NCBI GenBank assembly: GCA_001774395.1
Contig: MEZX01000001.1
Location: 27,643 to 91,642 of the forward strand
Length of the DNA stretch: 64,000 bases
Source of the DNA: Candidatus Berkelbacteria bacterium RIFCSPLOWO2_01_FULL_50_28
GTDB lineage: Bacteria; Patescibacteriota; UBA1384; 2-12-FULL-50-11
Direction of reading: 5' to 3'
Under the pieces are notes generated by a model. That model was not told where the DNA came from. It saw only the letters and a list, made by a program, of their open reading frames with translations, and made no database searches. A program made the translations under genes and the position numbers. Shown here piece by piece: positions 6,087-61,970 of this stretch. Numbering within the stretch: position 1 is the first letter of the stretch; each line of letters opens with the position of its first letter.

Positions 6087-6221
6087 AATTAAGTTTGATT
6101 ACGAGCAAATGGAGTTTGCGAGGAATGCCGGAGCAACGCGACGGATATTCTTCTCAGGTACCCAAAAAAAGAAGCCCGCCCTCATCACAGCTCTGTGAAT
6201 CGGGCGAGCGAAGTAGTCCAG

Positions 6222-7496
6222 CTACGGACAGCCCTCAGCGATCTGGTTGATGATCGAGAGAGCAGCGGCGTTTTTCGAGCGGAGACACTCGAGACGTTCG
6301 CCACCGAGTTGGCCGATAACCGTTTGGAATAGGCTGAAGAGGGCTTCTTCCTCTTCCAGCAGTATCCCAATTGCCTTGCGGGCTTCGGGACGATGAAGCG
6401 GGACGATCCCCGAATCACCTAGCCATCGGTTGTTAAGCGCGCTGCGCACTTTGCGCATGAATGCCAGCCGCTCCAAAGCGTTCCGGAACATTTCCTGCCC
6501 GAGAACGCCGGCAGCAATGCCGTCAGCGGTCAGCTCGAGCTCTTCGAACATCGTCGCTTGACCAGCAACTTCCTCCAGCCAAACGTGCAGGTGCGATTTG
6601 AACTGAGCGACGTTTTTCATCGCCGCCTCACTCGCCGATAAAGCAAGCAGAATGCGATTAATCTCGTCCTCGGTCCGCCTTTCACCATCGGCTTTTGGCT
6701 TCTCGCGAAGCGTCCGTTGAATCATCGTGAGCTCCAACGCACAGCCCCACTTGAATGCCCCCGCTTCCACCGAATGCTGGATGATCCTGGGCAAGTCGCA
6801 GAACTTCAGCGAGTCTCGAACCATATCAGGCTTGATCTGAAGCCGCCTGGCAAACTCACTCACGGTGATCACGGCTCCATCTTCCAGACACTCAAGGTCA
6901 TACAGCCCCTTGATCGCTTTCGCCTGAACTGGGCGAGAGACGCCCTCCCGGTTTAGGTTCTCCTCGAGCTGCAGGCCGACTCCCCTTTGCGGCAGTATGC
7001 CCTGATACATCCGAGCCGGTACACCGTTCGGAAACTGCCGAGCGAAGCACTCTTCGCCAGAAACTTCCCCGTACGCCTGGCGATAGGCTTCGGATCCTTC
7101 CGCTTTCAACAGCAGTAAGCTTCTCATCCTTCGATGACCCGCCACAAGAACGTAGTACTTTCCACCATCATATGGTTTGAAATTCTCGAGCTCGTGGCCT
7201 CCGTCCCCGTTGAAGATCTTCTCCACCAACTGTTTGTACTCGAGAACCATCTTCCGGCTCCAGACACAAACGGTTAACGGAGTCAGTAAGTCGTTGCTAG
7301 CGATACTATCAGCTAGCTCAGGGATACCCTCGTATTCTTCGCCTTCGCAATCGCGAACTTGGCGGAAAATACAGAGCTTGGCAATGTCGACAAATCCCGC
7401 CTCACCGCGAACGATTGTTCCAGCGTTTTGCACGTAGCACCTCCACAATTTAAGGTCCGAACGAAAAAGCACGGCCCCCTTAACTTCTGTATGCAA
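6222..7496 (-). CDS. ParB/Sulfiredoxin-fold (ParB-like nuclease domain) protein, orphan (no ParA partner)
   Basis: YYVLVAGHRRMRSL is the ParB GxRR box within a ParB N-domain-like region. 424-aa ORF. The start is uncertain (an internal Met precedes the domain). Confidence 0.6.
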   Translation of the reverse strand: MHTEVKGAVLFRSDLKLWRCYVQNAGTIVRGEAGFVDIAKLCIFRQVRDCEGEEYEGIPELADSIASNDLLTPLTVCVWSRKMVLEYKQLVEKIFNGDGGHELENFKPYDGGKYYVLVAGHRRMRSLLLLKAEGSEAYRQAYGEVSGEECFARQFPNGVPARMYQGILPQRGVGLQLEENLNREGVSRPVQAKAIKGLYDLECLEDGAVITVSEFARRLQIKPDMVRDSLKFCDLPRIIQHSVEAGAFKWGCALELTMIQRTLREKPKADGERRTEDEINRILLALSASEAAMKNVAQFKSHLHVWLEEVAGQATMFEELELTADGIAAGVLGQEMFRNALERLAFMRKVRSALNNRWLGDSGIVPLHRPEARKAIGILLEEEEALFSLFQTVIGQLGGERLECLRSKNAAALSIINQIAEGCP

Positions 7497-26727: not shown

Positions 26728-28314
26728 ATGAGATATATTCTTTACGCCAGGAAGAGTAGCGAGTCTGAGGAACGCCAGGTCCAGAGCATCGACGATCAAC
26801 TCCGCGTGGTTCGAGACTTCGCCAAGAGGTCCGGTCTTGACGTGGTCGCCGAATTGACCGAGGCGCATTCCGCCAAAGCGCCCGGGACACGACCGGTCTT
26901 TGCCGAACTCCTCGCCCGGATCGAGCGAGGCGAAGCCGAAGGGATCGTCTGCTGGAGTATCAACCGGCTGGCCCGCAATCCCGTCGATTCTGGTCAGTTG
27001 AGCTGGCTCTTGCAGCGAGGCGTTCTCAAGTCCATCCGAACCATCGACCGGGAGTATCTGCCCGAGGACAACGTCCTGCTGATGGCGGTCGAGTCGGGCG
27101 TAGCCAACCAGTACATCCTCGATCTGCGCAAGGCCGTCATCCGCGGCATGGAAGGCAAGGCCGCCCGGGGTTGGATTCCCAATCGACCTCCCCAAGGGTA
27201 CGGCGTCAATCCGCTGACCAAGGAGATCGATCCCATCGAACCGCAGTTCCAATTGCTTCGACAGGCCTGGGATTTGCTTCTAACCGGCGCCTACACGGTG
27301 CCCCAGATACGATCAAAGTTACAATCCTGGGGCTACACCTATGGGAAGCTCGGTGCACCAGCTAAGCCCCTCTTTGCCGAATCTCACCTCTATCGAATCT
27401 TCGACAACCGCTTCTACTGCGGCTCTTTCACCTTTCGCGGCCAGACCTACCAGGGCCGGCACCGGGTGATGGTCAGCCCAGAGGAGTTTGATCGAGCCCA
27501 GGGGATCTTACACAAAGACAACCGGATTCAGCCCCAGAGGCATGAATTCCCGTTCACCGGACTCATCCGTTGTGGGCGCTGCGGTTGCCTGGTCACCGCC
27601 GAGCGCAAGATCAAACACTACAAGACGACCGCCCGAACGGCGGCCTACGAGTACTACCACTGCACACACCGCAAGGGTGACTGTAAAGAGGTCAGCGTCA
27701 CCGGCCCATATATCGACTCGACCATCGCCTGCGAACTTGAGAGCGTCCTGATCGATCCGGAATTCGGCCAATGGCTCCTCAAGGCCTTGGAACGGTTTTG
27801 GGACGAGCAGCCTCCGGTTGACCCCAAATTGATCAAACAGCACCAAGAACACGTTCGTGCGACCGAACAGAAACTCGAACGATTGATCCAGCTTAGGCTG
27901 GCCGGGGAACTGGACGCCCAGGAGTTCAGCCGCATCAAGACCCAAACTCAGGGAGAACTGGCCGATGGCCGAAGACAGCTTGAGAGTTTGTCAAAACGAG
28001 CCTCAACCGGACGACAGGCTCTCATCAATGCCGTTCGGTTCGGCCTCGATGCCCCGCGGCATTTTGCCGAAAACGACACTCATCTGAAAAGGTATGTCGC
28101 GACGATGTTTGGCATTCGCTACGTTCTCACTCTGGGAAAGCTGGAAATCACACCGCATCCGCTGCTGACGCAATTGGCCGCGTTAGAACCTCCAAAATCG
28201 CCACGCAATATGGTTGGAGCCGGGGCTTTGCGCCCCGACGCTCCCATTGAGTGGAGCTGGCGGGAGTTGAACCCGCGTCCGAAAACAAACGAACCAAATC
28301 ATCTACAAGCTTAG
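26728..28314 (+). CDS. Large serine recombinase (integrase/resolvase)
   Basis: N-terminal resolvase catalytic domain (YARKSSESEERQVQSIDDQ ... RLARN), recombinase domain (GWIPNRPPQGYG), zinc-ribbon Cys cluster (CGRCGC...YYHC...C), C-terminal coiled-coil. 528 aa. Confidence 0.85.
   Translation: MRYILYARKSSESEERQVQSIDDQLRVVRDFAKRSGLDVVAELTEAHSAKAPGTRPVFAELLARIERGEAEGIVCWSINRLARNPVDSGQLSWLLQRGVLKSIRTIDREYLPEDNVLLMAVESGVANQYILDLRKAVIRGMEGKAARGWIPNRPPQGYGVNPLTKEIDPIEPQFQLLRQAWDLLLTGAYTVPQIRSKLQSWGYTYGKLGAPAKPLFAESHLYRIFDNRFYCGSFTFRGQTYQGRHRVMVSPEEFDRAQGILHKDNRIQPQRHEFPFTGLIRCGRCGCLVTAERKIKHYKTTARTAAYEYYHCTHRKGDCKEVSVTGPYIDSTIACELESVLIDPEFGQWLLKALERFWDEQPPVDPKLIKQHQEHVRATEQKLERLIQLRLAGELDAQEFSRIKTQTQGELADGRRQLESLSKRASTGRQALINAVRFGLDAPRHFAENDTHLKRYVATMFGIRYVLTLGKLEITPHPLLTQLAALEPPKSPRNMVGAGALRPDAPIEWSWRELNPRPKTNEPNHLQA
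28252..28280 (-). other. tRNA 3'-end fragment (T-arm + acceptor 3' strand): putative att remnant overlapping the recombinase 3' end
   Basis: Reverse complement is GGACGCGGGTTCAACTCCCGCCAGCTCCA, i.e. T-stem GCGGG, T-loop UUCAACU, T-stem CCCGC, acceptor strand CAGCUCC, discriminator A. No matching 5' half or D/anticodon arms were found. Confidence 0.6.
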
Positions 28315-28683: not shown

Positions 28684-29385
28684 TTGAAAAATGGGGCTGA
28701 AATATGTAGCGTCAAAGTGATGCTAGAGCTCAAAAACGCTACAAAAAGATTTACCGACGGCGAAGTCGTCAACGCCCTGGACGGTGTCAGCATTACCGTC
28801 GAGCGCGGTGAATTCGTAGGCATTATCGGCCCGAGCGGCTGCGGTAAATCTACTCTGCTTTACACATTGGGGCTGCTCGATTCCACCGACGAAGGCGAGT
28901 ATCGGATCGGCGACCAGCTCGCAGACGAATTGACGCGTAAACAACGGGCGAAACTGCGCAATAAGAAGTTTGGCTTTGTATTTCAATCTTTCAACCTACT
29001 GGCTCGAACCTCATCGTACGACAACGTCATTTTGCCACTACTGTACGGCCAAACCGCTGGTGCCGCGACCAAAACCCAGGCGTCGCTGGAACGAGTCGGC
29101 TTATGGAACAAACGTAAGAACTGGCCAAACCAGCTATCGGGCGGCCAGCAGCAACGTGTCGCCATCGCTCGAGCGCTCGTAAACGAGCCGGAAATAATCT
29201 TGGCCGATGAACCCACCGGTAATTTAGATTCAAAAACTGGCGTTGAAATCATGAATTTATTCAAAGAAATTCACGCCAAAGGCACAACCGTGGTGATGGT
29301 TACTCATAACCCTGATCTTTTGAAATACGCCACGAGAATTATCGAGATGCGAGACGGCAGAATAGTGCGGGACGAAAATGTGTAA
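28684..29385 (+). CDS. ABC transporter ATP-binding protein (MacB/LolD/FtsE-like)
   Basis: [37 protein letters not shown]. Confidence 0.85.
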
Positions 29386-29541
29386 CCTTTTTGAGTACGA
29401 GTCCTCGCGTCCCAGCCGCCGCTCAGCTCTCGCGCTCCTCCTCGCTCGTCCTTCGGCGAGCTCAGGACACCGTGCCCGCTCGTCGTCCGCGACGCCTCAA
29501 AAAAGTTACACTTTCTCGTCCCTTGGGAAGGAAAAATTCTA

Positions 29542-30741
29542 ATGGGTATTCTACTTAACCTAAAAACAGCCCTAAAGTCACTTTGGAATAATAGGCTTCG
29601 CAGTTTTCTTACCTTGTTGGGGATTGTCATCGGGGTTTACGCCGTTGTCACACTTTTGGCCGCGGCCCAGGGTGTCCAAAACCAAATCGGCGGTTTCGTT
29701 GAAGACTTCGGACCCCGAACAATAATAATTATGCCCGGTGAGTCGGATTCTTCTGGAACGCCAAACTTTGCCGCTCAAGCCGCCCCGTCAACGCTGGTCG
29801 TTGATGACATTAGCTACCTTCGTCAACACGCAAACCTCATTGAAGACACGATCGACTACGCTGTTTTTATCGGAGGCCTTGCGGCTCACGGCGATAAGAA
29901 ATTGACCGGCATGCCTGTTGGCATCACACCGGGTGCGGAAGAACTGTTCAGCATAAAAATAATTGCCGGACGTAATTTTACCCAAAATGACCTAACCAAG
30001 AAAAGCCGAGTCTTGGTGCTAAGTGAGGCGGCGGCAGAAAAGCTAGCTGTAAAAGTGGGTGAAACGATGAATATCGGCCGTGATCAATTCAAGGTAATTG
30101 GACTCTTCGAAGTCGAGCAGTCGCTAAGTATCAGCTCCGCCCAGGGGGAGATGTTTCTCATTCCGGCACCAGTCGCAAATGAAATAAACAGGTCGCCACA
30201 GGTTAATCGCATCGTCGTCCACTCCAAAACCGTCGAAGACGTCGATAAGGCAATTGCCCAAGTAGAAAAGGTGCTTACCGCCAAACACGGCACGACCGAT
30301 TTCACCGTTATGAAACCGTCCGATATTCTGAAGACGGTTGATCAGATTATTAATGTGCTGAAATATATGGTTATCGGCATCACCTCCATTTCCCTGCTTG
30401 TTGGCGGCATTGGCATTATGAACATTATGCTTGTTACGGTGGCCGAACGAACCCGCGAGATCGGCATCCGCAAAGCAGTGGGCGCTACGGAAAGTGCGAT
30501 CATGTTGCAGTTTTTGATCGAATCGGTTGTGCTAACGGTAATTGGCGCGTTGATCGGTATTGGCTTAGCCTCTGTAACGTCGTATCTGGCCGCGAAATTC
30601 TCGCCGCTAGAACCACTCATCACCACCCAGACCATTTTGATCGCCGTAGCGATGGGCGTTATCGCAGGAGTTATCTTTGGCCTTTTCCCAGCCATTCGCG
30701 CCGCCCGTAAGAACCCCGTTGCCGCTCTCAAATACGAATAA
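29542..30741 (+). CDS. FtsX-like ABC transporter permease (MacB-type)
   Basis: N-terminal TM, large extracytoplasmic domain, C-terminal 3-TM FtsX domain with a conserved Gly-rich segment. 399 aa. Confidence 0.8.
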   Translation: MGILLNLKTALKSLWNNRLRSFLTLLGIVIGVYAVVTLLAAAQGVQNQIGGFVEDFGPRTIIIMPGESDSSGTPNFAAQAAPSTLVVDDISYLRQHANLIEDTIDYAVFIGGLAAHGDKKLTGMPVGITPGAEELFSIKIIAGRNFTQNDLTKKSRVLVLSEAAAEKLAVKVGETMNIGRDQFKVIGLFEVEQSLSISSAQGEMFLIPAPVANEINRSPQVNRIVVHSKTVEDVDKAIAQVEKVLTAKHGTTDFTVMKPSDILKTVDQIINVLKYMVIGITSISLLVGGIGIMNIMLVTVAERTREIGIRKAVGATESAIMLQFLIESVVLTVIGALIGIGLASVTSYLAAKFSPLEPLITTQTILIAVAMGVIAGVIFGLFPAIRAARKNPVAALKYE

Positions 30742-30903
30742 ACAACCTGGTTCTTGACCCCTCACTAAAGAGCTAACAGCTTTCTGTAGCCCTTTTGCCT
30801 GCGGAGTTTACTGAAAGACGACCCGGAGCAGAATGTAATTGTGCTATGTGAGTGAAAAGCTGTCGAGGCAAAAGATTAGCTCTTAAGTGCGGGGTTGACT
30901 CGG

Positions 30904-30921
30904 TGTAAAGTTTCCTTTACA
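30904..30921. promoter_or_regulatory. Perfect 7-bp inverted repeat TGTAAAG-tttc-CTTTACA (candidate operator), 11 nt upstream of the XRE-Hsp20 start codon
   Basis: Palindrome read directly from the sequence. Its position is typical for autoregulation by an XRE-family HTH. Confidence 0.4.
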
Positions 30922-30931
30922 TTGTTGGTAA

Positions 30932-31537
30932 ATGTCATCGGAATTACGCCTACTTTTACGGGACCTGCGTCAAGCCCAGGAACTGTCACAAGACGAGTTA
31001 GCCCATCAGCTGGGAATCTCTCGTCAATCAATCATTTCGCTCGAACAGGGCGCTTACTTGCCTAGTTTTCCACTGTTGATAACCATTATCGAGTTTTTCA
31101 ACTGTGACCTTGAGGAGCTTGTGGAAGGCCTGGGACAGAATGCAGCACAATTGCCCTCGAGCGACGAGGTGCCTATTCAGATGATTGAACAGCCAGCCAC
31201 CAGCTCGCTCTTTGGAGCAATCAATGTCTACGAAAACGAATCTGAGTACGAGGTTCAAGTTCAGGCGCCAGGGTTAAAAGAGAACGAGCTCAACCTTGAG
31301 TTTTCAGGTGACACGCTGACAATTACCGCTCAAACCGCGGTCGACAGGAACGATGCCACTAAAAAACTCATCCGTCGCGAGTGGGAGCACGACTCATTCA
31401 GTCGTCAGGTGCGCTTCGCTCACCCGATCAAGGAAGAAAAAGTTGAGGCCAAGCTCTCTGACGGGACGTTAAGAGTTACCGCCCCGAAAGTGGAGCCAGT
31501 CAAACCGAAGGTTAAGAAGATTGAAGTGAAGAAGTAG
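30932..31537 (+). CDS. Fusion protein: N-terminal XRE-family HTH + C-terminal Hsp20/alpha-crystallin domain
   Basis: N-terminus LSQDELAHQLGISRQSIISLEQG (Cro/C1 HTH). C-terminus INVYENESEYEVQVQAPGLKENELNLEFSGDTLTITAQ ... SFSRQVRFAHPIKEEKVEAKLSDGTLRVTAPK is a classic alpha-crystallin domain. Confidence 0.7.
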   Translation: MSSELRLLLRDLRQAQELSQDELAHQLGISRQSIISLEQGAYLPSFPLLITIIEFFNCDLEELVEGLGQNAAQLPSSDEVPIQMIEQPATSSLFGAINVYENESEYEVQVQAPGLKENELNLEFSGDTLTITAQTAVDRNDATKKLIRREWEHDSFSRQVRFAHPIKEEKVEAKLSDGTLRVTAPKVEPVKPKVKKIEVKK

Positions 31538-31585
31538 TCGCCTTCAAAAGCGAGCAAATTAGCGGCCAACTGGCCGCTAATTTAT

Positions 31586-32128
31586 CTACTTGACTGTGAT
31601 CGAGATTATTTTATCGCCGATGGCAATTTTATTGACGACATCCAGGCCAGAAGTGACGATGCCGAAGTTGGTGTACTGTTTGTCCAGAAAGCTCGATTCC
31701 TTTTTCACAATAAAGAATTGGGCGTCGTTAGAGACTTTAATGTCGCTACCGCGCGCCACCCCGAGCGAACCTAAAACAAACGGTTTATCGGAGAGCTCAG
31801 TAGCTATCTCGCCGCCGCCAGTACCGGTACCTAACGGATCGCCGCCCTGGATTACCCAATCTTCAACACGGTGAAAAGTGAGATTGTTATAGAAACCAGA
31901 CTTCACTTTGTCTTTGAAATTCTGAACCGTCTTTGGCGCCACGCTCGGATACAGTTCCAACGTAATATCGCCTTTTGAAGTTTTGATAACTGCCGTAGTT
32001 TTTTTGAGTGAGGCGTCCGCGTTATTTGGTTGTGGACCTGGCGCCACTGCTTTTTTGCCTGGAACCAACGCAAACAGACCCAAAATTGCCGCCAATACGA
32101 TCACACCGATAATAATATTGTTTGTCAT
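31586..32128 (-). CDS. Cyclophilin-type peptidyl-prolyl cis-trans isomerase, membrane-anchored
   Basis: FHRVEDWVIQGGDPLGTGTGG is the cyclophilin signature. N-terminal TM helix. Confidence 0.8.
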   Translation of the reverse strand: MTNNIIIGVIVLAAILGLFALVPGKKAVAPGPQPNNADASLKKTTAVIKTSKGDITLELYPSVAPKTVQNFKDKVKSGFYNNLTFHRVEDWVIQGGDPLGTGTGGGEIATELSDKPFVLGSLGVARGSDIKVSNDAQFFIVKKESSFLDKQYTNFGIVTSGLDVVNKIAIGDKIISITVK

Positions 32129-32133
32129 AGTTG

Positions 32134-32209
32134 TGCGCGGTAGTGGATTCGAACCACTGAAACCTCCTCGACGTCAACGAGGCGCTCTAACCAACTGAGC
32201 TAACCGCGC
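32134..32209 (-). tRNA. tRNA-Val (anticodon GAC)
   Basis: Reverse complement folds as acceptor GCGCGGU/ACCGCGC, anticodon stem CCUCG/CGAGG, loop UUGACGU, T-arm GGUUCGAAUCC. Confidence 0.85.
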
Positions 32210-32892
32210 ATTGTTGCTATCTTCTCACAAAATAACCTGCTAATCCAGACGAGCCTGCGTTGGATTGCAACCCGTCCGTACGAAACCACGCAAACCCCTT
32301 TATAATCTAAATAGGTGGGCTTTCCAGAAGTTCGCTTGTCTAAGGAAGTGGACTTAAAGTTCTCTATTGGAACCTTCAAGGTTTCCGCCCAGTACTCTCT
32401 TGTTTGCCCGATTTTTTGATCAGCTCGTAGATGGAGATAGAATCTGGCCTGAGTTGGACTTACTCCATAGAGCTTCTTCATACAATAAACAAAGAATTTC
32501 AGAATAGTTGGGTCAGAGCTACCAAGTGAGGTATCAGACGACTTTTTACTTCCCTCTCCCAAATAGAGAATCGCTAGGGCCAGTTCCAGAGTAGAAGCAT
32601 CCGTAAGATTTAACCTGCTCATCACCGCCTCCGCTTCTAAGCGCGCTACTTCAATACGACCCGCTTTCTGTCGATTGTGCCAGCGAATTGCGTTACCGCG
32701 CGATTCATTAATTGCCTTGAGCCAATTCGCTTTGATTGCAGTCCTTTGCTTATCGGTTAATTGGATACCAATGAACCAATAACTCAATGTTGATTTAGGA
32801 ATCCCCAGCTCTATCCCAATGCGCCCAAGTGGGACGCCTTCTTTGCGCATTTTCAACGCGAGATCTTTTAAGTGAAGGAATCTTGATTTCAT
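32200..32892 (-). CDS. Hypothetical HTH-containing protein, possible LAGLIDADG-like motif
   Basis: The N-terminal helix-turn-helix-like segment (GRIGIELGIPKSTLSYWF) and LALAILYLGEGSK are suggestive only. The stop codon overlaps the first ~10 nt of tRNA-Val. Confidence 0.3.
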   Translation of the reverse strand: MKSRFLHLKDLALKMRKEGVPLGRIGIELGIPKSTLSYWFIGIQLTDKQRTAIKANWLKAINESRGNAIRWHNRQKAGRIEVARLEAEAVMSRLNLTDASTLELALAILYLGEGSKKSSDTSLGSSDPTILKFFVYCMKKLYGVSPTQARFYLHLRADQKIGQTREYWAETLKVPIENFKSTSLDKRTSGKPTYLDYKGVCVVSYGRVAIQRRLVWISRLFCEKIATMRG

Positions 32893-32935
32893 TACAGTAT
32901 CCTCACTATGCTCTGCAGTACGGTTGCTGTCAATA

Positions 32936-33802
32936 CTAATCTTTGCTGCGTTGGGAAGGATCAAGAGCACCATCGGCAATAGCGATTTCTTCGTTGATGC
33001 GCTGCATTACGTCAGTGAAGTTTTTTACCCTTATGCGCGGCAGCTCAAATAGCGAAGATTGTTCTGTCGCCACGCCAAAATTTGTTGTTACTGCGGCACG
33101 TACCCCTAAACCAAAAACTAGATCAACAGTCTCCGCTTTGTACTGGCCGGATGGATAAGAAAAAACATATTCGGTATCTACCAAGCTGTTACTTATCTGC
33201 GTGTAAGCATTTTCGCGAGTCTGGTTGGCTAAATTAACGTGTGACATCGTGTGGCCACCAATTTCCATTCCCGCCTCCCTCAGCTTTGTTATCTGGTCGC
33301 GCGTCATGTAACCTTTCCTGCCAACAAAGTCACCAACGACAAAAAACGTCGCCGTCATTTTGTGATCCAGTAAAATAGGCAGGGCTTTTTTATAGGCATC
33401 AGTGTAGCCGTCGTCAAACGTTAAAATGACAGACTTTTCACCATATTTACCCTCCGCCAGCTCACTTAGGCTTATCGTGTGGTAGCCCTCAGCGACCAGC
33501 GCGTCCAGCTGGCTCGAGAGTATATCCGGCGCAACGGAGAGCTGGACCCCAAGCGGGTCATCCGTTCGATCCGCATAATCTCGAATATAGTGGTACATCA
33601 GTATCGGAACGCGGAAACTAGCACTCGAAGTGTTTGTTAGTGGAATTTGAGTTGTTGATTGGGACGGTTGGGACCCAACGACGTCGGCCGGAACTTCCGA
33701 TGGCGTTGGTGCCCTCTCCAGGCTAAAACCAATTTTCACCCACATAAATACGGCCGTGCCGACCAAACAAAAAACAAAGAGCCCAAACAGTATCCGACCC
33801 AT
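32936..33802 (-). CDS. Polysaccharide deacetylase (NodB-family) with N-terminal TM anchor
   Basis: FDDGYTDAY and the FFVVG ... GHTMSHVNL NodB motifs. The start was trimmed to MGRILFGLFVF so that the ORF no longer runs antisense across tRNA-Glu. Confidence 0.75.
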   Translation of the reverse strand: MGRILFGLFVFCLVGTAVFMWVKIGFSLERAPTPSEVPADVVGSQPSQSTTQIPLTNTSSASFRVPILMYHYIRDYADRTDDPLGVQLSVAPDILSSQLDALVAEGYHTISLSELAEGKYGEKSVILTFDDGYTDAYKKALPILLDHKMTATFFVVGDFVGRKGYMTRDQITKLREAGMEIGGHTMSHVNLANQTRENAYTQISNSLVDTEYVFSYPSGQYKAETVDLVFGLGVRAAVTTNFGVATEQSSLFELPRIRVKNFTDVMQRINEEIAIADGALDPSQRSKD

Positions 33803-33864
33803 TGCAGTAAGTATACCTCGGCTGTAATTGGGTTCAAAATAGGGTAGAATAGTTAAGATATTTG

Positions 33865-33938
33865 GGTCCCATCGTCTAGTGGCCCAGGACGCTGGATTTT
33901 CATTCCAGAAATCGCGGGTTCGACTCCCGCTGGGACCG
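33865..33938 (+). tRNA. tRNA-Glu (anticodon UUC)
   Basis: Acceptor GGUCCCA/UGGGACC, D-arm GUCU..GGAC, anticodon stem CUGGA/UCCAG, loop UUUUCAU, T-arm GCGGG-UUCGACU-CCCGC. Confidence 0.8.
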
Positions 33939-34154
33939 CTCTTCAAAAACACTCGCCACCGGCGGGTGTTTTTGGCGAATGCATTTGGGGAGACGAACCC
34001 ATTGCCGTTAGGCAATAGGTGCGATTTGTACGAGTTTACGAAGTACAAAATGAGCGTAGTGAATATAACGACTGAGCGGTCGCGAAGGAGTTATGCCGGA
34101 GCGAAGCGACGGATAATCCCGCTGGGACCGCACAAGTGGGGCGGCTAGGGTCGC

Positions 34155-35268: not shown

Positions 35269-36813
35269 GTGCAACAGACGACGACTAAATTATCTGCGTT
35301 TTGGTGGCGGTTTTTTGAAATACTCCCAGGCGCTTTGACGTGGATTGCGTTACTAGGGACCATTTTCCTAAGCTTCAGTCATCCGGTGTTAGTGGCGATC
35401 TTTGTCATATGTTTTGATCTAAACTGGCTGTTTCGATCGTTGAGGATGATGAAAAATACCTTCCTAACTTACCTTTACATTAAGAGAGATCAAAGAATAG
35501 ACTGGAAAGAGAGGCTAGATTCTTTAAGCAAAAATCAGCAAATAAATAGCAGATTGGTTGTTGAGAGTATAAAACCAGACGAGCTTTACCACGCAATAAT
35601 ATTGGTCCATTACAAAGAGCCGCTTGAACTGTTAATTGGTTCGATTGAGAGTTACGCTCGGAGCCGTACCAACAAAGAACGTTTGTGGTTAATATTAGGT
35701 TCAGAAGAACGGGCGGGGAACGACATCCATCGAATTTTCGAGGCCATACAAAAACGTTTCGGCAATGAATTCGGCCATATCATGCAAACGATCCACCCAG
35801 CTAACATCCCGGGCGAGATCAAGTGCAAGTCTGCCAACGGCACTTGGGCGGCAAAAGAATTTAAAAAAGTACTTGATAGTCGCCAGATCGAGTACGACAA
35901 AGTGATTGTTCACAACTTCGATGCCGACACCATGGTTTACTCGAACTACTTTGACTATGTTGCGTATAAATATCTTACATCCCCACTTGGCCAGCCGACC
36001 TCCTTCCAACCTGTGCATGTTTACGCCAACAATATCTGGGACGTACCAGCATTGATGCGTCTTATCGCTCAAAGCTCTACACTAATTTTTATGCACAATA
36101 TGTTGCGGCAAAGCCGCTTCCATCATTTTTCTTCACGGAGTGACGTGTTTCAAACCATAGTCGACATTAACTACTGGACAGTAAATGCTATCCCCGAGGA
36201 CTCAAGACAGTATTACGATTCGTACTTTCACTATCACGGGAAATTGGTTATTGAACCAATCTATATCCCTTTACGTATGGATGCGGTTTATGCTGACGGC
36301 TACTGGCCGACAGTGCAGAATCAGTACTTCCAGTTACGTCGTTGGGCATGGGGAATTTCCGATCTACCGTATGTTGTTGACTTGGCAGTAAAAGACCAGG
36401 CCCTTAATTGGTGGAACAAACTCGTTAAAATTCTTCAGCTAATTGAAAGCCATTTCTCCTGGGCAACATCAGCCATCTTTATCGCCATCCTTGGCTGGAT
36501 GCCGCGATTATTTAGCGTCGACTTTTCCAACACCGTCTTGGGTTATAACTTCCCGATTGTTACAAGAACCATCCTGGGCTTGGCATTAGTTGGATTAATC
36601 AGCGGGATAGTTATCAGTTTCCTTCTGTTGCCACCCCGACCGCAACACCGCGGAAAGTGGTATTACCTCAATTTTGTCTGGCAATGGATTCTGGCGCCAA
36701 TTGCCAGTATCTTCATCAGTTCGTTTGCCGCCATCGATGCCCAAACGCGGCTGATGATTGGCAAACGGCTCGACTATCAAGTTACCGAAAAAGCGGTTAC
36801 CAGAGACCGCTAG
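35269..36813 (+). CDS. Polytopic membrane protein with central cytoplasmic domain (possible family-2 glycosyltransferase-like)
   Basis: 514 aa with TM bundles at both ends. A central soluble region carries a DxD-like motif (HNFDADTM). Assignment is tentative. Confidence 0.35.
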   Translation: MQQTTTKLSAFWWRFFEILPGALTWIALLGTIFLSFSHPVLVAIFVICFDLNWLFRSLRMMKNTFLTYLYIKRDQRIDWKERLDSLSKNQQINSRLVVESIKPDELYHAIILVHYKEPLELLIGSIESYARSRTNKERLWLILGSEERAGNDIHRIFEAIQKRFGNEFGHIMQTIHPANIPGEIKCKSANGTWAAKEFKKVLDSRQIEYDKVIVHNFDADTMVYSNYFDYVAYKYLTSPLGQPTSFQPVHVYANNIWDVPALMRLIAQSSTLIFMHNMLRQSRFHHFSSRSDVFQTIVDINYWTVNAIPEDSRQYYDSYFHYHGKLVIEPIYIPLRMDAVYADGYWPTVQNQYFQLRRWAWGISDLPYVVDLAVKDQALNWWNKLVKILQLIESHFSWATSAIFIAILGWMPRLFSVDFSNTVLGYNFPIVTRTILGLALVGLISGIVISFLLLPPRPQHRGKWYYLNFVWQWILAPIASIFISSFAAIDAQTRLMIGKRLDYQVTEKAVTRDR

Positions 36814-38038: not shown

Positions 38039-40147
38039 CTAAGGGGTAGCGGCTTTGAAACGACGTCCGCGCATCGCCAGTGTACCAGCAGCTAGACTAA
38101 GCAGGCCGAGGACGTTAACGCTCTCATTTTGCAGCGGCGAAGCGCCGGAGTTGCTAGTTGCCCCAGATACTTGAACCTGAGGCGCCCAAGGCAACTGAGT
38201 TGGTAAGGTGACGGAAGAAACTCTGACCGGAATCGAGCGCGAATTGGTCGAAGATGCGATTGGGCTGATGGTGGCGGTTGGGCTGCTTGCAACTGGCGCT
38301 ACCACAGGAGCTGGCGCTATCGGCCTTGAGATTAGCTTGAACTTTGAGCCCAGCGCCCAAGCCTCAACCTGACCAGCGGAAGCGTTCCAATCAACAACGA
38401 CCGGCACGCTTACCTGGTCCTTGGCAACAAAGCTCTCTTTGGCAAGCAAGAAATGCAGCTTGAGTAACGTTCCAGTTGCCTCAAGCGAGACGTAATCCTT
38501 ACTGACCGCGCTGACCAGGCCGCGTAAATCCACCGCCCGGCCCATGAGCGAGGCAAAACTGCTAACAGGGAATTCACTTCGCATGAATTGTTGTGTACCG
38601 CCCAACACCAGATCGTCGAGTGCATCCAGCGTGATGCGTTGCACCTGGCTTTCGCTTTTCTCTCCGGTGATAGTCGCAAAGCGATTAATCGACTCCGGCA
38701 GGCTGCCGTGAGTCGAACTGAGATAAACTTGGATTCCGGCCTGATCATCTTGCAAATAAACTACGTCGTCCGAAACGACTCCAGGACCAACAGCTAGTAC
38801 CCCGCTAGTTTCAAGTAGTGTGCCAGCGGGCAAGGCTCTTGCTTCTTTTAAGGAAACGCTAAGTGTCGGCTCAACGGGAAGTGTAGTTCGACTCCAGGAG
38901 ATAAAGTCGCTACTTTTATACAGGTTCACATTTCCCTGACCTGAATTTGTTACCACTGAAACTAGCCCCAGATTTGGACGGAAAAAAGTCGCCCTTATCG
39001 GAGAAGTTGTCGATGACCACGGATTAACTTTTTGGGCGACGGTCGAGCCAAACGGCAAGACGTGGCTAAGACCACCGGTGTTACCAGCAGTTTGCCAGAA
39101 GAAGAATCCCGAAGGTAGTGCTTGAACCTGGTTATAAACGCCCGTTGTCGTGAAAGTCTGCCAGAAGCCAACGAGTAAAGAAATCTTGTTACTTGTGCCA
39201 AAGATCACCGCGTGGCCGTAGTGAGGATCGTAAATTGCGTTACTAGCCTCGGTTACTCTTTCTAGCGTTTGACTGCCAACGTATGTTAGCTCGTACCAGC
39301 CTCCCGTAAAACGAAGTAGTACTCTATCAGAAATCGCTTTTACTTCGCTTAGGGTCGCCGGGTTAGGGTCAGTTAGTTCAACAGAATAAAGCAAGCCGTC
39401 TTTCCAAACATAAAGATCTTCCGGATTTCCGCGCCCGGACGCGGCCAGAATACTTGAGGTGACTGACGGCTGTTGAATCTTTGGCAGGCTAAACACAGCC
39501 CAGCTGTTGGCACCTGGCACGAAAACTTCCCCCGAGTTGCACCACATAAACGGAAAAGGATTCGGATACAGCGCGAACTCACCGCAGAGAATTGAGCTAT
39601 TGGGAATCCAGCCGCTCGGAGTGAGCTTGTACATTATGACGTTCGGGGCAGTTTCAAGCGCGTACCAGATACTTCCTGATGCTAGAAACAAGTTCTCGCG
39701 GCTAAGGTTGCGATTTGTTGGTAGCCCTGTTTTGGCTGTAAAAACCCCGTTGGCGTTCAGGATAAATGTTTGGGAGACCGCACCTTTTTTGGTGAAAGCA
39801 AAGAATCTTCCACCAACCTCCGTGAGCGTCAAGCTGTCCGAATCACCTAGAGTTTCGTCAAGGCGCCAGTCCAAACTAGTTCGACTGCGCAACAATCGAT
39901 GAGTGCCCTCTTGCTCAAGTATAATAAAACGCTCGGCGGTAAAATACTCTACTTGTTTAATATGACCAGTATCGGGTAACACCGCCAGCTGCCATTTCTT
40001 TAACACTCCACGCTGTTTGTAGGCGTTTGTTTCGGTGGCAAAAAGCGTTCCGTTATTGGTTTCGAGAAAGAAATGCGCTTGAGCAGATGAAATAGGGAGA
40101 AATAAAGCAATAACAACGGCTACGAACTCAAAGCTTCTCTTTAACAT
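38039..40147 (-). CDS. Large secreted/surface protein with C-terminal hydrophobic anchor
   Basis: 702 aa. N-terminal signal peptide, Ser/Thr/Pro-rich segment near the C-terminus, terminal hydrophobic stretch followed by basic residues (LAMRGRRFK). Confidence 0.55.
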   Translation of the reverse strand: MLKRSFEFVAVVIALFLPISSAQAHFFLETNNGTLFATETNAYKQRGVLKKWQLAVLPDTGHIKQVEYFTAERFIILEQEGTHRLLRSRTSLDWRLDETLGDSDSLTLTEVGGRFFAFTKKGAVSQTFILNANGVFTAKTGLPTNRNLSRENLFLASGSIWYALETAPNVIMYKLTPSGWIPNSSILCGEFALYPNPFPFMWCNSGEVFVPGANSWAVFSLPKIQQPSVTSSILAASGRGNPEDLYVWKDGLLYSVELTDPNPATLSEVKAISDRVLLRFTGGWYELTYVGSQTLERVTEASNAIYDPHYGHAVIFGTSNKISLLVGFWQTFTTTGVYNQVQALPSGFFFWQTAGNTGGLSHVLPFGSTVAQKVNPWSSTTSPIRATFFRPNLGLVSVVTNSGQGNVNLYKSSDFISWSRTTLPVEPTLSVSLKEARALPAGTLLETSGVLAVGPGVVSDDVVYLQDDQAGIQVYLSSTHGSLPESINRFATITGEKSESQVQRITLDALDDLVLGGTQQFMRSEFPVSSFASLMGRAVDLRGLVSAVSKDYVSLEATGTLLKLHFLLAKESFVAKDQVSVPVVVDWNASAGQVEAWALGSKFKLISRPIAPAPVVAPVASSPTATISPIASSTNSRSIPVRVSSVTLPTQLPWAPQVQVSGATSNSGASPLQNESVNVLGLLSLAAGTLAMRGRRFKAATP

Positions 40148-60193: not shown

Positions 60194-61909
60194 CTACTTG
60201 GTACTCTCGACAAATCCGTACTCGACAGTGATCATACTCGGCAATATCGGAAGACGGCGAATCCACCAACTTGGAGTGACGTCGACGGTCGTTTCCGTGA
60301 CCTCGCTCTGAGATTTCAGAGCCGCTTGGGCCGCGTCAAAGGTTAGGTTATTAATCTGCTTGGCGATGGCCGTTTTGTCGATTTTTGGCGCAACGAACCC
60401 CTCTGCTTCAACATTAAAAGTCATCACTGAATTGCTCGAATCGTACTTTTTGAAGGTCAGTTTTGGTGAGGTATTTTCCGGCAAAACAAGCTGTTGGTTG
60501 TCGGTTATGCCTTTACTAAGCTCGAGTCGAACTTTTTCCAGAACGGCGTTCTTGTCGAAAGCAATTACCGAGAGTGAAAGCGTTAGTTTCAGAGTGGCTG
60601 AATCGACTTGTTCACCAACAGAACGATCGATATCTTGCTCTTTAACCTTTTGCCGAACCGAACCATCGAGCACAGTCTGTCCCTCTCCCTTTTTTCCCAA
60701 ATCTTTCTCGGCCTCGGCGACCAGCTCTTTTTTGGCGCTACTGATTACCTTGTCTATGTCACCTTGCGACAGTACCGTCACCGTTTTCGTTACCCCGCCG
60801 CTCGTTGAGCCGGTGGCGTAAACCAACGCGCCTTGACCCGAGATGGTAAATTGCGCCGATTGAAGATTATAGGCGTTTCCCGAAACGGCCGCGGTAACAC
60901 TGCCGGATGCCTGACCCGGCACGACGCTGCCACCAGAAACCGATGCTCCAGGAATAGTGATGGCGCTATTCAATGAAAAAATCTTACCGCTGGAAGAAAC
61001 ACTTGCCAGCGCGGCCAGCGTGACGGATGAGGAACTGGCCTTGTTGTAAAATGTAATTCTGCCAGAAGATTTTGTGCCAATGTCTTTTTTGCCAGTCGCA
61101 GTAATTTTTTTCGTCGTCGAGCCCTCGGAAGTGAGTAAGCTGCCAGCAATAGTGCTGGGACTGCTGTCGGCCGTGGTTTTTGCGTTAAGAAGTAGCGTCT
61201 TTGACTTCGACTCGGCCTGCAGCGTTAGCGTCACTGTGGCCTTAGGCAGAAAAACAAAAATGATCGTAAAGCTTATGAGCAAAATTATCACCGTAGCAAT
61301 AAGCGATTTCCAGGGCAGTTTGAAATCGATGGGCGTTCGTTCAACTTTGTAACGCGGGGCTGTTTTTTGCCGTGAAACAATCGATGGCAGCTCATCGACA
61401 CTGATCGTCTCTCCTACCTTCGGAGGCACAGTTTCTGCGGGTTCGGGCGCTAGCTCGCTCCCTTCCTCTGGCGCAGGGGGACTCGCTTCTTCTTTCGGTA
61501 GTTCCTCAACTGGCTGTGCCGGCTCGGCGTCTTGAACCACCTCTCCCGATTCGGAGCCCTGCGGCCCGGTGTATTGGTTAACCTTGACCCCGTCAATCAT
61601 CGTCGTTGCCGCTAGGGGAATCGGGTTTGGTGTTGCGGTCGGAGCCGTACCGGCTAAACCACCGAGATTGGCATATGTTTCCAATCCCACTTGACGCGCC
61701 AGGCGTGCTCCAATTTTATTGGTCGAAATTAACGAAACACGCTTGTCGAGATTTGCCGCTTCACGTTGCAATAGTTTTAGGTTTATTAAACTTTGAAATA
61801 GGGTGCTATTTTTGGGCACTACTACAGCCACATCACGAGACTCAGCGCTTTTTAGTTTATCGATTACAGAAGTGATCTCCTCGTCTGGTTCAAGGTAGAT
61901 CGGCTTCAT
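60194..61909 (-). CDS. Hypothetical bitopic membrane protein (cytoplasmic N-domain, Pro/Glu-rich linker, TM, large Ser/Thr/Gly-rich beta-type ectodomain)
   Basis: 571 aa from MKPIYLEPDEE. TM at LIATVIILLISFTIIFVFL. No catalytic motif recognised. Confidence 0.5.
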   Translation of the reverse strand: MKPIYLEPDEEITSVIDKLKSAESRDVAVVVPKNSTLFQSLINLKLLQREAANLDKRVSLISTNKIGARLARQVGLETYANLGGLAGTAPTATPNPIPLAATTMIDGVKVNQYTGPQGSESGEVVQDAEPAQPVEELPKEEASPPAPEEGSELAPEPAETVPPKVGETISVDELPSIVSRQKTAPRYKVERTPIDFKLPWKSLIATVIILLISFTIIFVFLPKATVTLTLQAESKSKTLLLNAKTTADSSPSTIAGSLLTSEGSTTKKITATGKKDIGTKSSGRITFYNKASSSSVTLAALASVSSSGKIFSLNSAITIPGASVSGGSVVPGQASGSVTAAVSGNAYNLQSAQFTISGQGALVYATGSTSGGVTKTVTVLSQGDIDKVISSAKKELVAEAEKDLGKKGEGQTVLDGSVRQKVKEQDIDRSVGEQVDSATLKLTLSLSVIAFDKNAVLEKVRLELSKGITDNQQLVLPENTSPKLTFKKYDSSNSVMTFNVEAEGFVAPKIDKTAIAKQINNLTFDAAQAALKSQSEVTETTVDVTPSWWIRRLPILPSMITVEYGFVESTK

Positions 61910-61920
61910 CTCACACCTCC

Positions 61921-61970
61921 GGTGTGGCAATTTTCAATTTTCAGTTTCCAATTTTCAATTATGGTGTTGC
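61921..61970. repeat. Second cluster of tandem CAATTTT heptamers
   Basis: ggcaattttcaattttcagtttccaattttcaatt lies immediately upstream (minus strand) of the 60194-61909 gene and downstream of the ftsA-like stop. Confidence 0.6.

Follow-up and report, generated by a model that had tools for sequence, protein, structure and literature searches.

We analyzed a stretch of 64,000 nucleotides (nt) from Candidatus Berkelbacteria bacterium RIFCSPLOWO2_01_FULL_50_28 (GenBank assembly GCA_001774395.1, contig MEZX01000001.1, positions 27,643 to 91,642; hereafter the window), in which one gene encodes a protein of 201 amino acids (aa) that joins a helix-turn-helix (HTH) DNA-binding domain of the XRE family to a small heat shock protein (sHSP). 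Comparison of this gene and its promoter with those of its relatives, and with the promoters of chaperone genes, makes it likely that the fusion protein represses transcription of the chaperone (heat-shock) regulon, its own gene included, in Berkelbacteria-like Patescibacteria and is probably the main heat-shock repressor of that lineage. A more ambitious version of this reading has, in our judgment, an even chance of holding: a single polypeptide would be both the sHSP sensor and the repressor of dnaK, dnaJ, grpE, and groESL; in most members, a leaderless repressor and a free sHSP translated from a Shine-Dalgarno sequence would be produced from one mRNA, the free sHSP tuning the repressor by assembling with it; and the whole would constitute a new regulator class replacing HrcA, HspR, or sigma-32.

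An XRE-type DNA-binding domain fused in frame to an alpha-crystallin domain

An earlier reading of this DNA from its letters (the original prediction) had described a 201-aa fusion of an XRE HTH and an alpha-crystallin domain, and both the open reading frame (ORF) and Pfam bear this out. More specifically, the ORF at 30932-31537 on the + strand encodes an N-terminal HTH_3 (XRE) domain (residues 9-63; E 4.6e-13, 49.4 bits against a cut-off of 23) and a C-terminal HSP20 domain (residues 100-200; E 1.3e-18, 67.4 bits against a cut-off of 20.8). NCBIfam returned sub-threshold matches only, to sHSP models and to XRE antitoxin/repressor models, and no HrcA domain was detected by either Pfam or NCBIfam. 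The protein is identical to the database entry "hypothetical protein A3A71_03365" of Candidatus Berkelbacteria bacterium RIFCSPLOWO2_01_FULL_50_28. The parts of the gene and its product are as follows:

30932-31537, + strand: coding sequence of the 201-aa HTH-sHSP fusion (ORF, Pfam, homologues)
30944-31129, + strand: XRE/Cro-C1-type HTH, residues ~5-66 (Pfam HTH_3, AlphaFold2 [AF2] model, invariant columns)
31130-31213, + strand: disordered linker, residues 67-94 (AF2, alignment A1)
31214-31489, + strand: alpha-crystallin domain (ACD), a beta-sandwich, residues ~95-186 (Pfam HSP20, AF2, Foldseek)
31520-31528, + strand: C-terminal I-E-V (IxI/V) motif, I197-E198-V199 (alignment A2)

In the AF2 model, two confident domains are connected via a disordered linker (pLDDT <50 across residues 69-91): five helices at residues 9-15, 20-27, 31-38, 46-56, and 60-63 with pLDDT of 80-90, as in the XRE five-helix bundle, and a beta-sandwich at residues 97-186. 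The recognition-helix segment SRQSIISLE (columns S30-E38 of alignment A2) is invariant in the family. Foldseek matched the sandwich part, and that part only, to S. pombe SpHsp16.0, wheat Hsp16.9, M. jannaschii MjHsp16.5, and others with a probability of 1.00, and found no solved chain in the PDB that unites an HTH with an alpha-crystallin domain. The IxI/V motif is the oligomerization anchor of sHSPs and docks into the beta4/beta8 groove of a neighboring dimer; both I197 and V199 are invariant in alignment A2. The sHSP assembly features of the window protein, namely a canonical ACD fold and an invariant IxV motif, are thus intact, and holdase activity and oligomer formation are predicted from its membership of the sHSP family.

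A search for further fusions of this architecture, as had been suggested, returned 130 relatives, more than 110 of them with the two domains in a single frame. Those that are named all belong to Patescibacteria, mostly Berkelbacteria, others being labeled "Patescibacteria group" and some Saccharimonadales. Consistently, a profile search of 1.84 billion cluster representatives yielded 54 clusters at E<=1e-30, and inspection of the best 150 matches identified ~70-80 full-length two-domain representatives. The HTH-HSP20 architecture is therefore rare yet well established. Most homologues are ~230-233 aa long and retain, between their two domains, the sHSP N-terminal region in full (MQLxPWSPFQAIDRMHDEM...FGRGDWSRALG). 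The clade of the 201-aa window protein has lost this region (~30 residues relative to the 230-aa forms in alignment A1), and a 28-residue disordered linker is left in its place.

That the fusion might be an assembly or frameshift artefact of two separate genes, the objection raised in advance against the original prediction, is contradicted by these homologues, which are independent in-frame fusions, and one of which lies on the closed 768,650-bp chromosome CP066697.1. The artefact account could point to two database entries, P0112 and P0116, that annotate the sHSP part alone. Both turned out to be fused loci, one called from an internal start (L185) and the other broken by a gap of Ns (L184), and we give this account practically no credence; P0112 and P0116, considered as unfused stand-alone sHSP ancestors of the fusion, were set aside for the same reason.

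The fusion gene is preceded by a palindromic operator embedded in its core promoter

Immediately upstream of the fusion gene lies a perfect 7-bp inverted repeat with a 4-nt center, exactly as first described, except that its end is 10 nt, and not 11 nt, from the ATG. It lies within a sigma-70-like promoter identified by promoter scan (TTGACT-17-TACATT, 9 of 12 matches):

30904-30921, no strand: operator, perfect inverted repeat TGTAAAG-tttc-CTTTACA, TGTAAAGtttcCTTTACA (sequence; conserved upstream of orthologues)
30895-30900, + strand: -35 hexamer TTGACT of the sigma-70-type promoter (promoter scan)
30918-30923, + strand: -10 hexamer TACATT, from the right half-site and 2 nt beyond it (promoter scan)

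The spacer is occupied by the left half-site, and the right half-site accounts for most of the -10 element; the centers of the two half-sites are 11 bp apart, or about one helical turn. In the 64-kb window the palindrome occurs once, even if up to 2 mismatches are allowed. At least one match was found in 16 of 100 shuffles of the window, and this single occurrence is not significant when taken alone. What makes it significant is the comparison with orthologues: of 28 independently retrieved loci, 26 have an exact match immediately ahead of the orthologous gene. These 28 fused loci, from species-representative genomes, were retrieved by protein similarity only (alignment A2), such that the upstream DNA was not imposed. 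The exact TGTAAAG-N4-CTTTACA (14 specified bases) is present in 26 of them and a version with one mismatch in a 27th; the palindrome occurs once per ~12-kb fused locus, and 32 unrelated loci from the same retrieval contained no match.

Adding the window and a Logan contig locus (L183) to the 26 loci gave 28 aligned exact fusion-gene sites, with the consensus tcTTGACnnaaTGTAAAGttTnCTTTACATTa. Across these sites, the half-sites do not change even where protein identity drops to 28%, and the central 4 nt vary freely, a pattern that reads as the signature of a dimeric HTH operator rather than of a promoter spacer, and we accordingly expect XRE-type binding of the palindrome by a dimer of the fusion protein. 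TTGAC is placed 4 nt before the palindrome in nearly all of the 28 orthologous loci, and the distance from the end of the palindrome to the ATG is 7-15 nt at 24 of the 28 aligned sites. In the window, the ATG follows the -10 hexamer by 8 nt and has no Shine-Dalgarno sequence; given this short gap, the fusion mRNA should be leaderless or nearly so. Because the palindrome is conserved at the core promoter of the fusion gene itself, these data support the proposal, already made in the original prediction, that the protein is an autoregulated repressor.

We also observed that the surroundings of the -35 element are common to the regulon promoters of one genome and differ between genomes. The fusion and groES promoters of the window's species both carry GTGCGGGGTTGAC (window 30887-30900 versus L178 9928-9940), and those of CP066697.1 both carry cTTGACGCTA (L186 2931-2944 versus L188 2957-2970). 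This likeness within genomes points to promoters that evolve in concert or to additional contacts.

The same operator is found at dnaK, grpE, groES-groEL, and dnaJ

The original prediction had proposed a search for the palindrome upstream of chaperone genes, and we found it at dnaK, grpE, groES-groEL, and dnaJ; these genes belong to the lineage of the fusion gene and in some cases share a genome or a contig with it. Scanning metagenomes for the pattern TTGAC-N3-6-TGTAAAG-N4-CTTTACA returned at least 119 stretches, corresponding to at least 101 distinct sites after clustering at 90% identity. Sorted by the first gene downstream, and with the pattern having been imposed by the scan, so that the category counts describe a sample, the distinct sites are distributed as follows:

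Fusion gene: at least 20 distinct sites
dnaK: at least 16 distinct sites
groES (then groEL): at least 8 distinct sites
grpE (then dnaK): at least 4 distinct sites
Small XRE gene: at least 11 distinct sites
Small membrane-protein gene: at least 29 distinct sites
parB: at least 3 distinct sites
Nothing assignable, mostly contig ends: at least 10 distinct sites

Pfam verified Cpn10, HSP70, GrpE, DUF2178, HTH_3, and ParB on representatives of these sites. The chaperone promoters have the form TTGACA-AAA-TGTAAAG-N4-CTT-TACAAT or -TACATT and are followed by leaders of 35-150 nt with good Shine-Dalgarno sequences. The full promoter-operator precedes dnaK, grpE, and groES-groEL; dnaJ has the palindrome alone, two dnaK loci containing another exact copy that lies ahead of a J-domain (DnaJ-like) gene.

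For the window's own species, we located the GroES protein P0124, named RIFCSPLOWO2_01_FULL_50_28, whose groES-groEL genes are preceded by TTGACAaaTGTAAAGCAAACTTTACAAT. In the P0124 loci, gcggggTTGACAaaTGTAAAGCAAACTTTACAATaa lies 42 nt before groES-groEL and is the sole such site in 20 kb. Likewise, the operator is present at the fusion gene and at dnaK on a single contig of 75,148 bp, which also has a 2-mismatch site before dnaJ (L182); on the closed chromosome CP066697.1, the fusion gene and groES each have it. A relaxed search (up to 2 mismatches) of the window and the chaperone loci added only the dnaJ site of L182. For one operator-bearing DnaK, the top-ranking relatives carry the names Berkelbacteria or Patescibacteria.

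These sites bear on whether the protein might be a local autoregulator of its own gene and nothing more, as a single palindrome copy in 64 kb could be taken to imply. No chaperone gene was found in the 64-kb window, which deprives that single copy of its force; moreover, the groES-groEL promoter of the same species bears the operator, and in relatives dnaK, grpE, and dnaJ bear it too, some of these genes sharing a contig or chromosome with the fusion gene. We therefore consider purely local control to have a very slim chance. By the same token, the one-component stress switch of the original prediction is supported in its essentials and was too narrow in scope: the palindrome is the operator of a regulon and not a local site alone.

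We found no sign of the known alternatives at these loci. The CIRCE element (TTAGCACTC-N9-GAGTGCTAA, up to 4 mismatches) had no match in 213 kb of chaperone loci, and the HAIR element CTTGAGT-N7-ACTCAAG had none near chaperone genes, one weak match (2 mismatches) lying more than 6 kb from groES. In the loci examined, hrcA was not found adjoining grpE-dnaK; a ComEC-like gene (divergent), a gene with a metallo-beta-lactamase fold, and YebC were found upstream of grpE instead.

Two further features of the sites were observed. First, in many relatives (L062, L108, L112, L117, L146, and L182) grpE lies upstream of dnaK and the operator stands between grpE and dnaK, with none at grpE, and in others (L083, L094, and L106) the operator stands ahead of grpE-dnaK; the wiring of the regulon thus varies within the lineage. 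Second, the same promoter-operator occurs 29 nt ahead of a ParB (Spo0J-like) gene in organisms of low G+C content (at least 11 loci, which form 3 sequence clusters: L063, L064, L067, L075, L102, L115, L120, L138, L156, L161, and L164). The ParB sites may reflect chance or cross-regulation by a small XRE protein, and we did not count them in the regulon.

The HTH of the fusion protein is the favored binder of the operator

Outside the fusion lineage, the promoter-operator heads operons that encode an XRE protein of 67-81 aa, directly so at the sites counted above for small XRE genes. Among the matches listed, a small membrane-protein gene is followed by the small XRE gene in 23 of 30 cases, and the membrane protein is DUF2178 by Pfam in those representatives that matched. 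The recognition helix of these small proteins reads SRQ[ST]I, and in one of them the HTH has 40% identity to that of the window protein (E 8e-13). Their contigs reach a G+C content of 0.70, which suggests that they come from other lineages. The module of membrane protein and small XRE protein (loci L069-L175, e.g., L110, L087, L099, L132, L079, and L144) is uncharacterized, would be autoregulated, and is apparently widespread.

The existence of small XRE proteins with a related HTH and an identical operator raises an alternative, in which a different regulator, such as a separate small XRE protein, binds the operator and the fusion protein is merely one of the regulated products, its HTH having some other function, such as tethering a chaperone to DNA or to the nucleoid. 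That sHSP genes are typical of any heat-shock regulon also speaks for this account. Several observations run the other way: the fusion gene is the only HTH gene at the operator in every fused locus; SRQSIISLE is invariant across the family, as are the half-sites; no separate small XRE gene is present in the ~12-20-kb loci around regulon genes; and the small-XRE operons, with their G+C of up to 0.70, point to other lineages. Thus, we regard a different binder as unlikely, and the idea of a chaperone tethered to DNA, an option in the original prediction, is not favored, as the sites are specific promoter operators.

We argue instead that the HTH of the fusion protein would bind the operator, because the operator accompanies this HTH subtype at its own promoter in both contexts. 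The distribution of the two types of gene suggests an origin in which an sHSP was joined to a small XRE repressor that controlled its own gene and whose operator was later recruited to chaperone promoters.

Proposed mechanism of repression and stress sensing

Under the repressor reading, a dimeric alpha-crystallin domain would hold two XRE HTHs on both half-sites, on one face of the DNA, and the bound repressor would occlude RNA polymerase at its own gene and at dnaK, grpE, groES-groEL, and dnaJ. Occlusion is to be expected because the palindrome takes up the spacer of near-consensus sigma-70 promoters (TTGACA-17-TACAAT/TACATT) and extends into their -10 element. The same location, between the -35 and -10 elements, is also where sites of MerR-type regulators lie, and the protein might conceivably be a stress-dependent activator acting from the spacer. 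MerR-type promoters have spacers of 19-20 nt. In contrast, the promoters described here have near-consensus hexamers and an optimal 17-nt spacer that would need no remodeling, and the site covers the -10 element itself; hence, we hold activation of the MerR kind to be highly improbable.

The sHSP moiety of the proposed repressor would be the sensor. Upon heat or proteotoxic stress, it would be captured by unfolding clients and/or altered in its oligomeric state, the repressor would leave the DNA, and the chaperone genes would be induced. The induced DnaK-DnaJ-GrpE would then clear the sHSP-client complexes, freeing the repressor and bringing about shut-off. Resolution of sHSP-client complexes by the DnaK system is a known property of bacterial sHSP networks (PMC8155344).

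Most homologues appear able to produce a second product. Most of the 230-aa homologues (loci L004-L027 and L183, e.g., L010 at about 6220-6250) have a conserved in-frame ATG at the beginning of the sHSP N-terminal region, and 6-10 nt ahead of it stands a Shine-Dalgarno sequence, AAGGAGGTGA or AAGGAG. This internal AAGGAG(GTGA) is kept at the nucleotide level as the encoded residues change (EEGGEQ, KGGEK, RKERN, KKENI, and GKETK), and in two loci gene callers picked the internal start, giving apparent stand-alone sHSPs that are in fact intact fused ORFs. The internal start should yield a free sHSP from the same mRNA in most homologues. With a leaderless 5' start for the full-length form, the derepressed mRNA should provide little repressor and much free sHSP, which could co-assemble with the repressor through the ACD and the IxV motif and so tune it. 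The clade of the window protein has no conserved internal start. In the window gene a GAGGTG-9-ATG is present at M84 (31166-31183), perhaps as a vestige, and is not kept in the clade, for which reason we do not claim a short isoform for this gene.

How the sHSP part would sense stress admits a second answer, in which the repressor and its regulon are the same and the protein is an intrinsic thermometer: heat would shift the dimer-oligomer equilibrium of the sHSP or unfold its dimer interface, and cooperative binding by the HTHs would be lost without any clients. Temperature-dependent subunit exchange and de-oligomerization are general properties of sHSPs, and the N-terminal region of sHSPs, which is variable and hydrophobic, is a major client-binding site that is also used in assembly. 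The window's clade, in which this client-binding region is gone yet the ACD, IxV motif, and operator persist, fits a thermometer, and an assembly-based sensor is relatively more plausible for the window protein because its sHSP N-terminal region has been lost. Most members of the family, on the other hand, keep the full N-terminal region together with the predicted free sHSP from an internal start, both of which are more naturally explained if client binding or co-assembly matters. A pure thermometer is thus possible and less probable than not; we rate client titration slightly above it, and the two modes are not mutually exclusive and may coexist.

Several points weigh against the reading of the fusion protein as repressor of a chaperone regulon. 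The case for DNA binding, repression, and heat induction is one of comparative genomics. Heat-shock regulons commonly include sHSP genes, so that the operator would be expected at the fusion gene under any regulator. The counts of sites by downstream gene come from a sample whose pattern the scan had imposed. The comparison covered loci rather than whole genomes, and these genomes might hold hrcA, hspR, ctsR, or rpoH elsewhere, or another XRE protein whose recognition helix is identical. One fused homologue (L030) has no operator nearby. The dnaK gene of the window's genome was not among the best 120 matches to a Berkelbacteria DnaK query, and groES-groEL are the chaperone genes at which we could place the operator in the window's species. 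Finally, the window's clade is without the sHSP N-terminal region, so that client titration is less secure for the window protein than for its longer relatives.

Relation to known heat-shock regulators

The original prediction did not recognize the protein as a member of a described regulator class. Consistently, in the literature covered, which included a bacterial sHSP review and left most subscription-journal papers outside, we found neither the fusion nor the operator described, nor any account of heat-shock regulation in this lineage.

To our knowledge, every well-studied bacterial heat-shock circuit (sigma-32/DnaK, HrcA/GroEL, and HspR/DnaK) pairs the regulator with a separate titratable chaperone. 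HrcA, which acts at CIRCE, is a repressor titrated by GroEL, and HspR, which acts at HAIR, is a MerR-family repressor with DnaK as its co-repressor. The proposed circuit would resemble HrcA/CIRCE in the negative control of dnaK and groE via a palindromic promoter operator and in feedback from chaperone load. It differs in that the fusion of an XRE HTH to HSP20 is an unrelated protein without an HrcA domain, in that the operator is TGTAAAG-N4-CTTTACA as opposed to TTAGCACTC-N9-GAGTGCTAA, and in that the chaperone is covalently part of the repressor, whereas that of HrcA is a separate partner. With HspR/HAIR it would share autoregulation, repression of a dnaK operon, and an activity tied to a chaperone that is titrated by unfolded proteins. 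In contrast to HspR, the fusion protein has an XRE and not a MerR fold, no HAIR is found near the chaperone genes, and its chaperone is an ATP-independent sHSP in cis, that of HspR being DnaK in trans.

RheA, which represses hsp18 in Streptomyces albus, and CtsR are intrinsic thermosensor repressors that are autoregulated and lose DNA binding on heat. Compared by description only, they resemble the proposed role of the fusion protein as autoregulated repressors of heat-shock genes and differ from it in belonging to other families and in being separate from the chaperones that they control.

The fusion protein also has relatives on either side of its linker. The small XRE regulators of the DUF2178 operons are of the same HTH subfamily (40% identity, SRQ[ST]I helix) and have an identical promoter-embedded operator. 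Unlike the fusion protein, they are 67-81 aa long, consist of the HTH only, would regulate a membrane-protein operon of their own instead of chaperone genes, and occur in other lineages, including high-GC ones; the fusion gene, for its part, neighbors MacB permease and cyclophilin genes and has no DUF2178 gene. With the canonical oligomeric sHSPs (wheat Hsp16.9, MjHsp16.5, and SpHsp16.0) it shares the ACD fold, the IxI/V motif, and, in most members, the N-terminal region. Unlike them, it adds an N-terminal DNA-binding domain, and the window's clade is without the sHSP N-terminal region.

The closest precedent for a titrated sHSP sensor is IbpA of E. coli, which represses the translation of its own mRNA and that of rpoH, takes part in shut-off, and has been named an aggregation sensor by those who described it (PMC10410725; bioRxiv 10.1101/2020.04.20.050740). 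Like the protein proposed here, IbpA is an sHSP that regulates the heat-shock response and its own synthesis. IbpA acts post-transcriptionally on mRNA and through the sHSP itself, whereas the dedicated HTH of the fusion protein would act on promoter operators in DNA, and the idea of sHSPs as aggregation sensors would thereby be extended from RNA to DNA.

A heat-shock repressor with chaperone feedback is thus a known arrangement; the novelty would lie in the operator and in the fusion of the sensor chaperone in cis. If the reading is correct, the client load of a chaperone would be read directly at promoters, and a large uncultivated lineage with tiny genomes would be supplied with its missing heat-shock regulator and regulon. 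As the chaperone and the DNA-binding domain are in one protein, their coupling can be tested with a single purified component and 18 bp of DNA. The conserved internal start is a likely case of a regulator and a modulator or effector encoded by one ORF, and the promoter-operator module TTGACA-N3-4-TGTAAAG-N4-CTTTACA-AT could be used as a marker of stress genes in metagenomes and metatranscriptomes of the Candidate Phyla Radiation.

Genomic surroundings of the fusion gene

Upstream of the fusion gene lie genes for an ABC ATPase and a MacB-type permease, and downstream a convergent cyclophilin gene, from which the fusion gene is separated by one further feature:

31555-31584, no strand: hairpin terminator with a 13-pair stem including 6 G-C pairs, between the convergent fusion and cyclophilin genes

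Farther downstream are tRNA-Val, an ORF without a family match, and a polysaccharide deacetylase gene. The order of ABC ATPase, MacB permease, fusion gene, reverse-strand cyclophilin gene, and reverse-strand polysaccharide deacetylase gene (window 28684-34048, L183, and L188) is common to distant Berkelbacteria. In the window, the interval between the cyclophilin and deacetylase genes holds the tRNA-Val (32133-32209) and the ORF, which encodes 259 aa without a Pfam match (32200-32979); in the annotation of CP066697.1, no gene is called in this interval.

Directly upstream of the ABC transporter genes, at 26728-28314, the window encodes a large serine recombinase (Resolvase, Recombinase, and Zn_ribbon_recom domains), which may be the remnant of a mobile element. 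Three long ORFs elsewhere in the window, at 38039-40147 (702 aa), 60194-61930 (578 aa), and 35269-36813 (514 aa), had no Pfam match at E<=1e-5.

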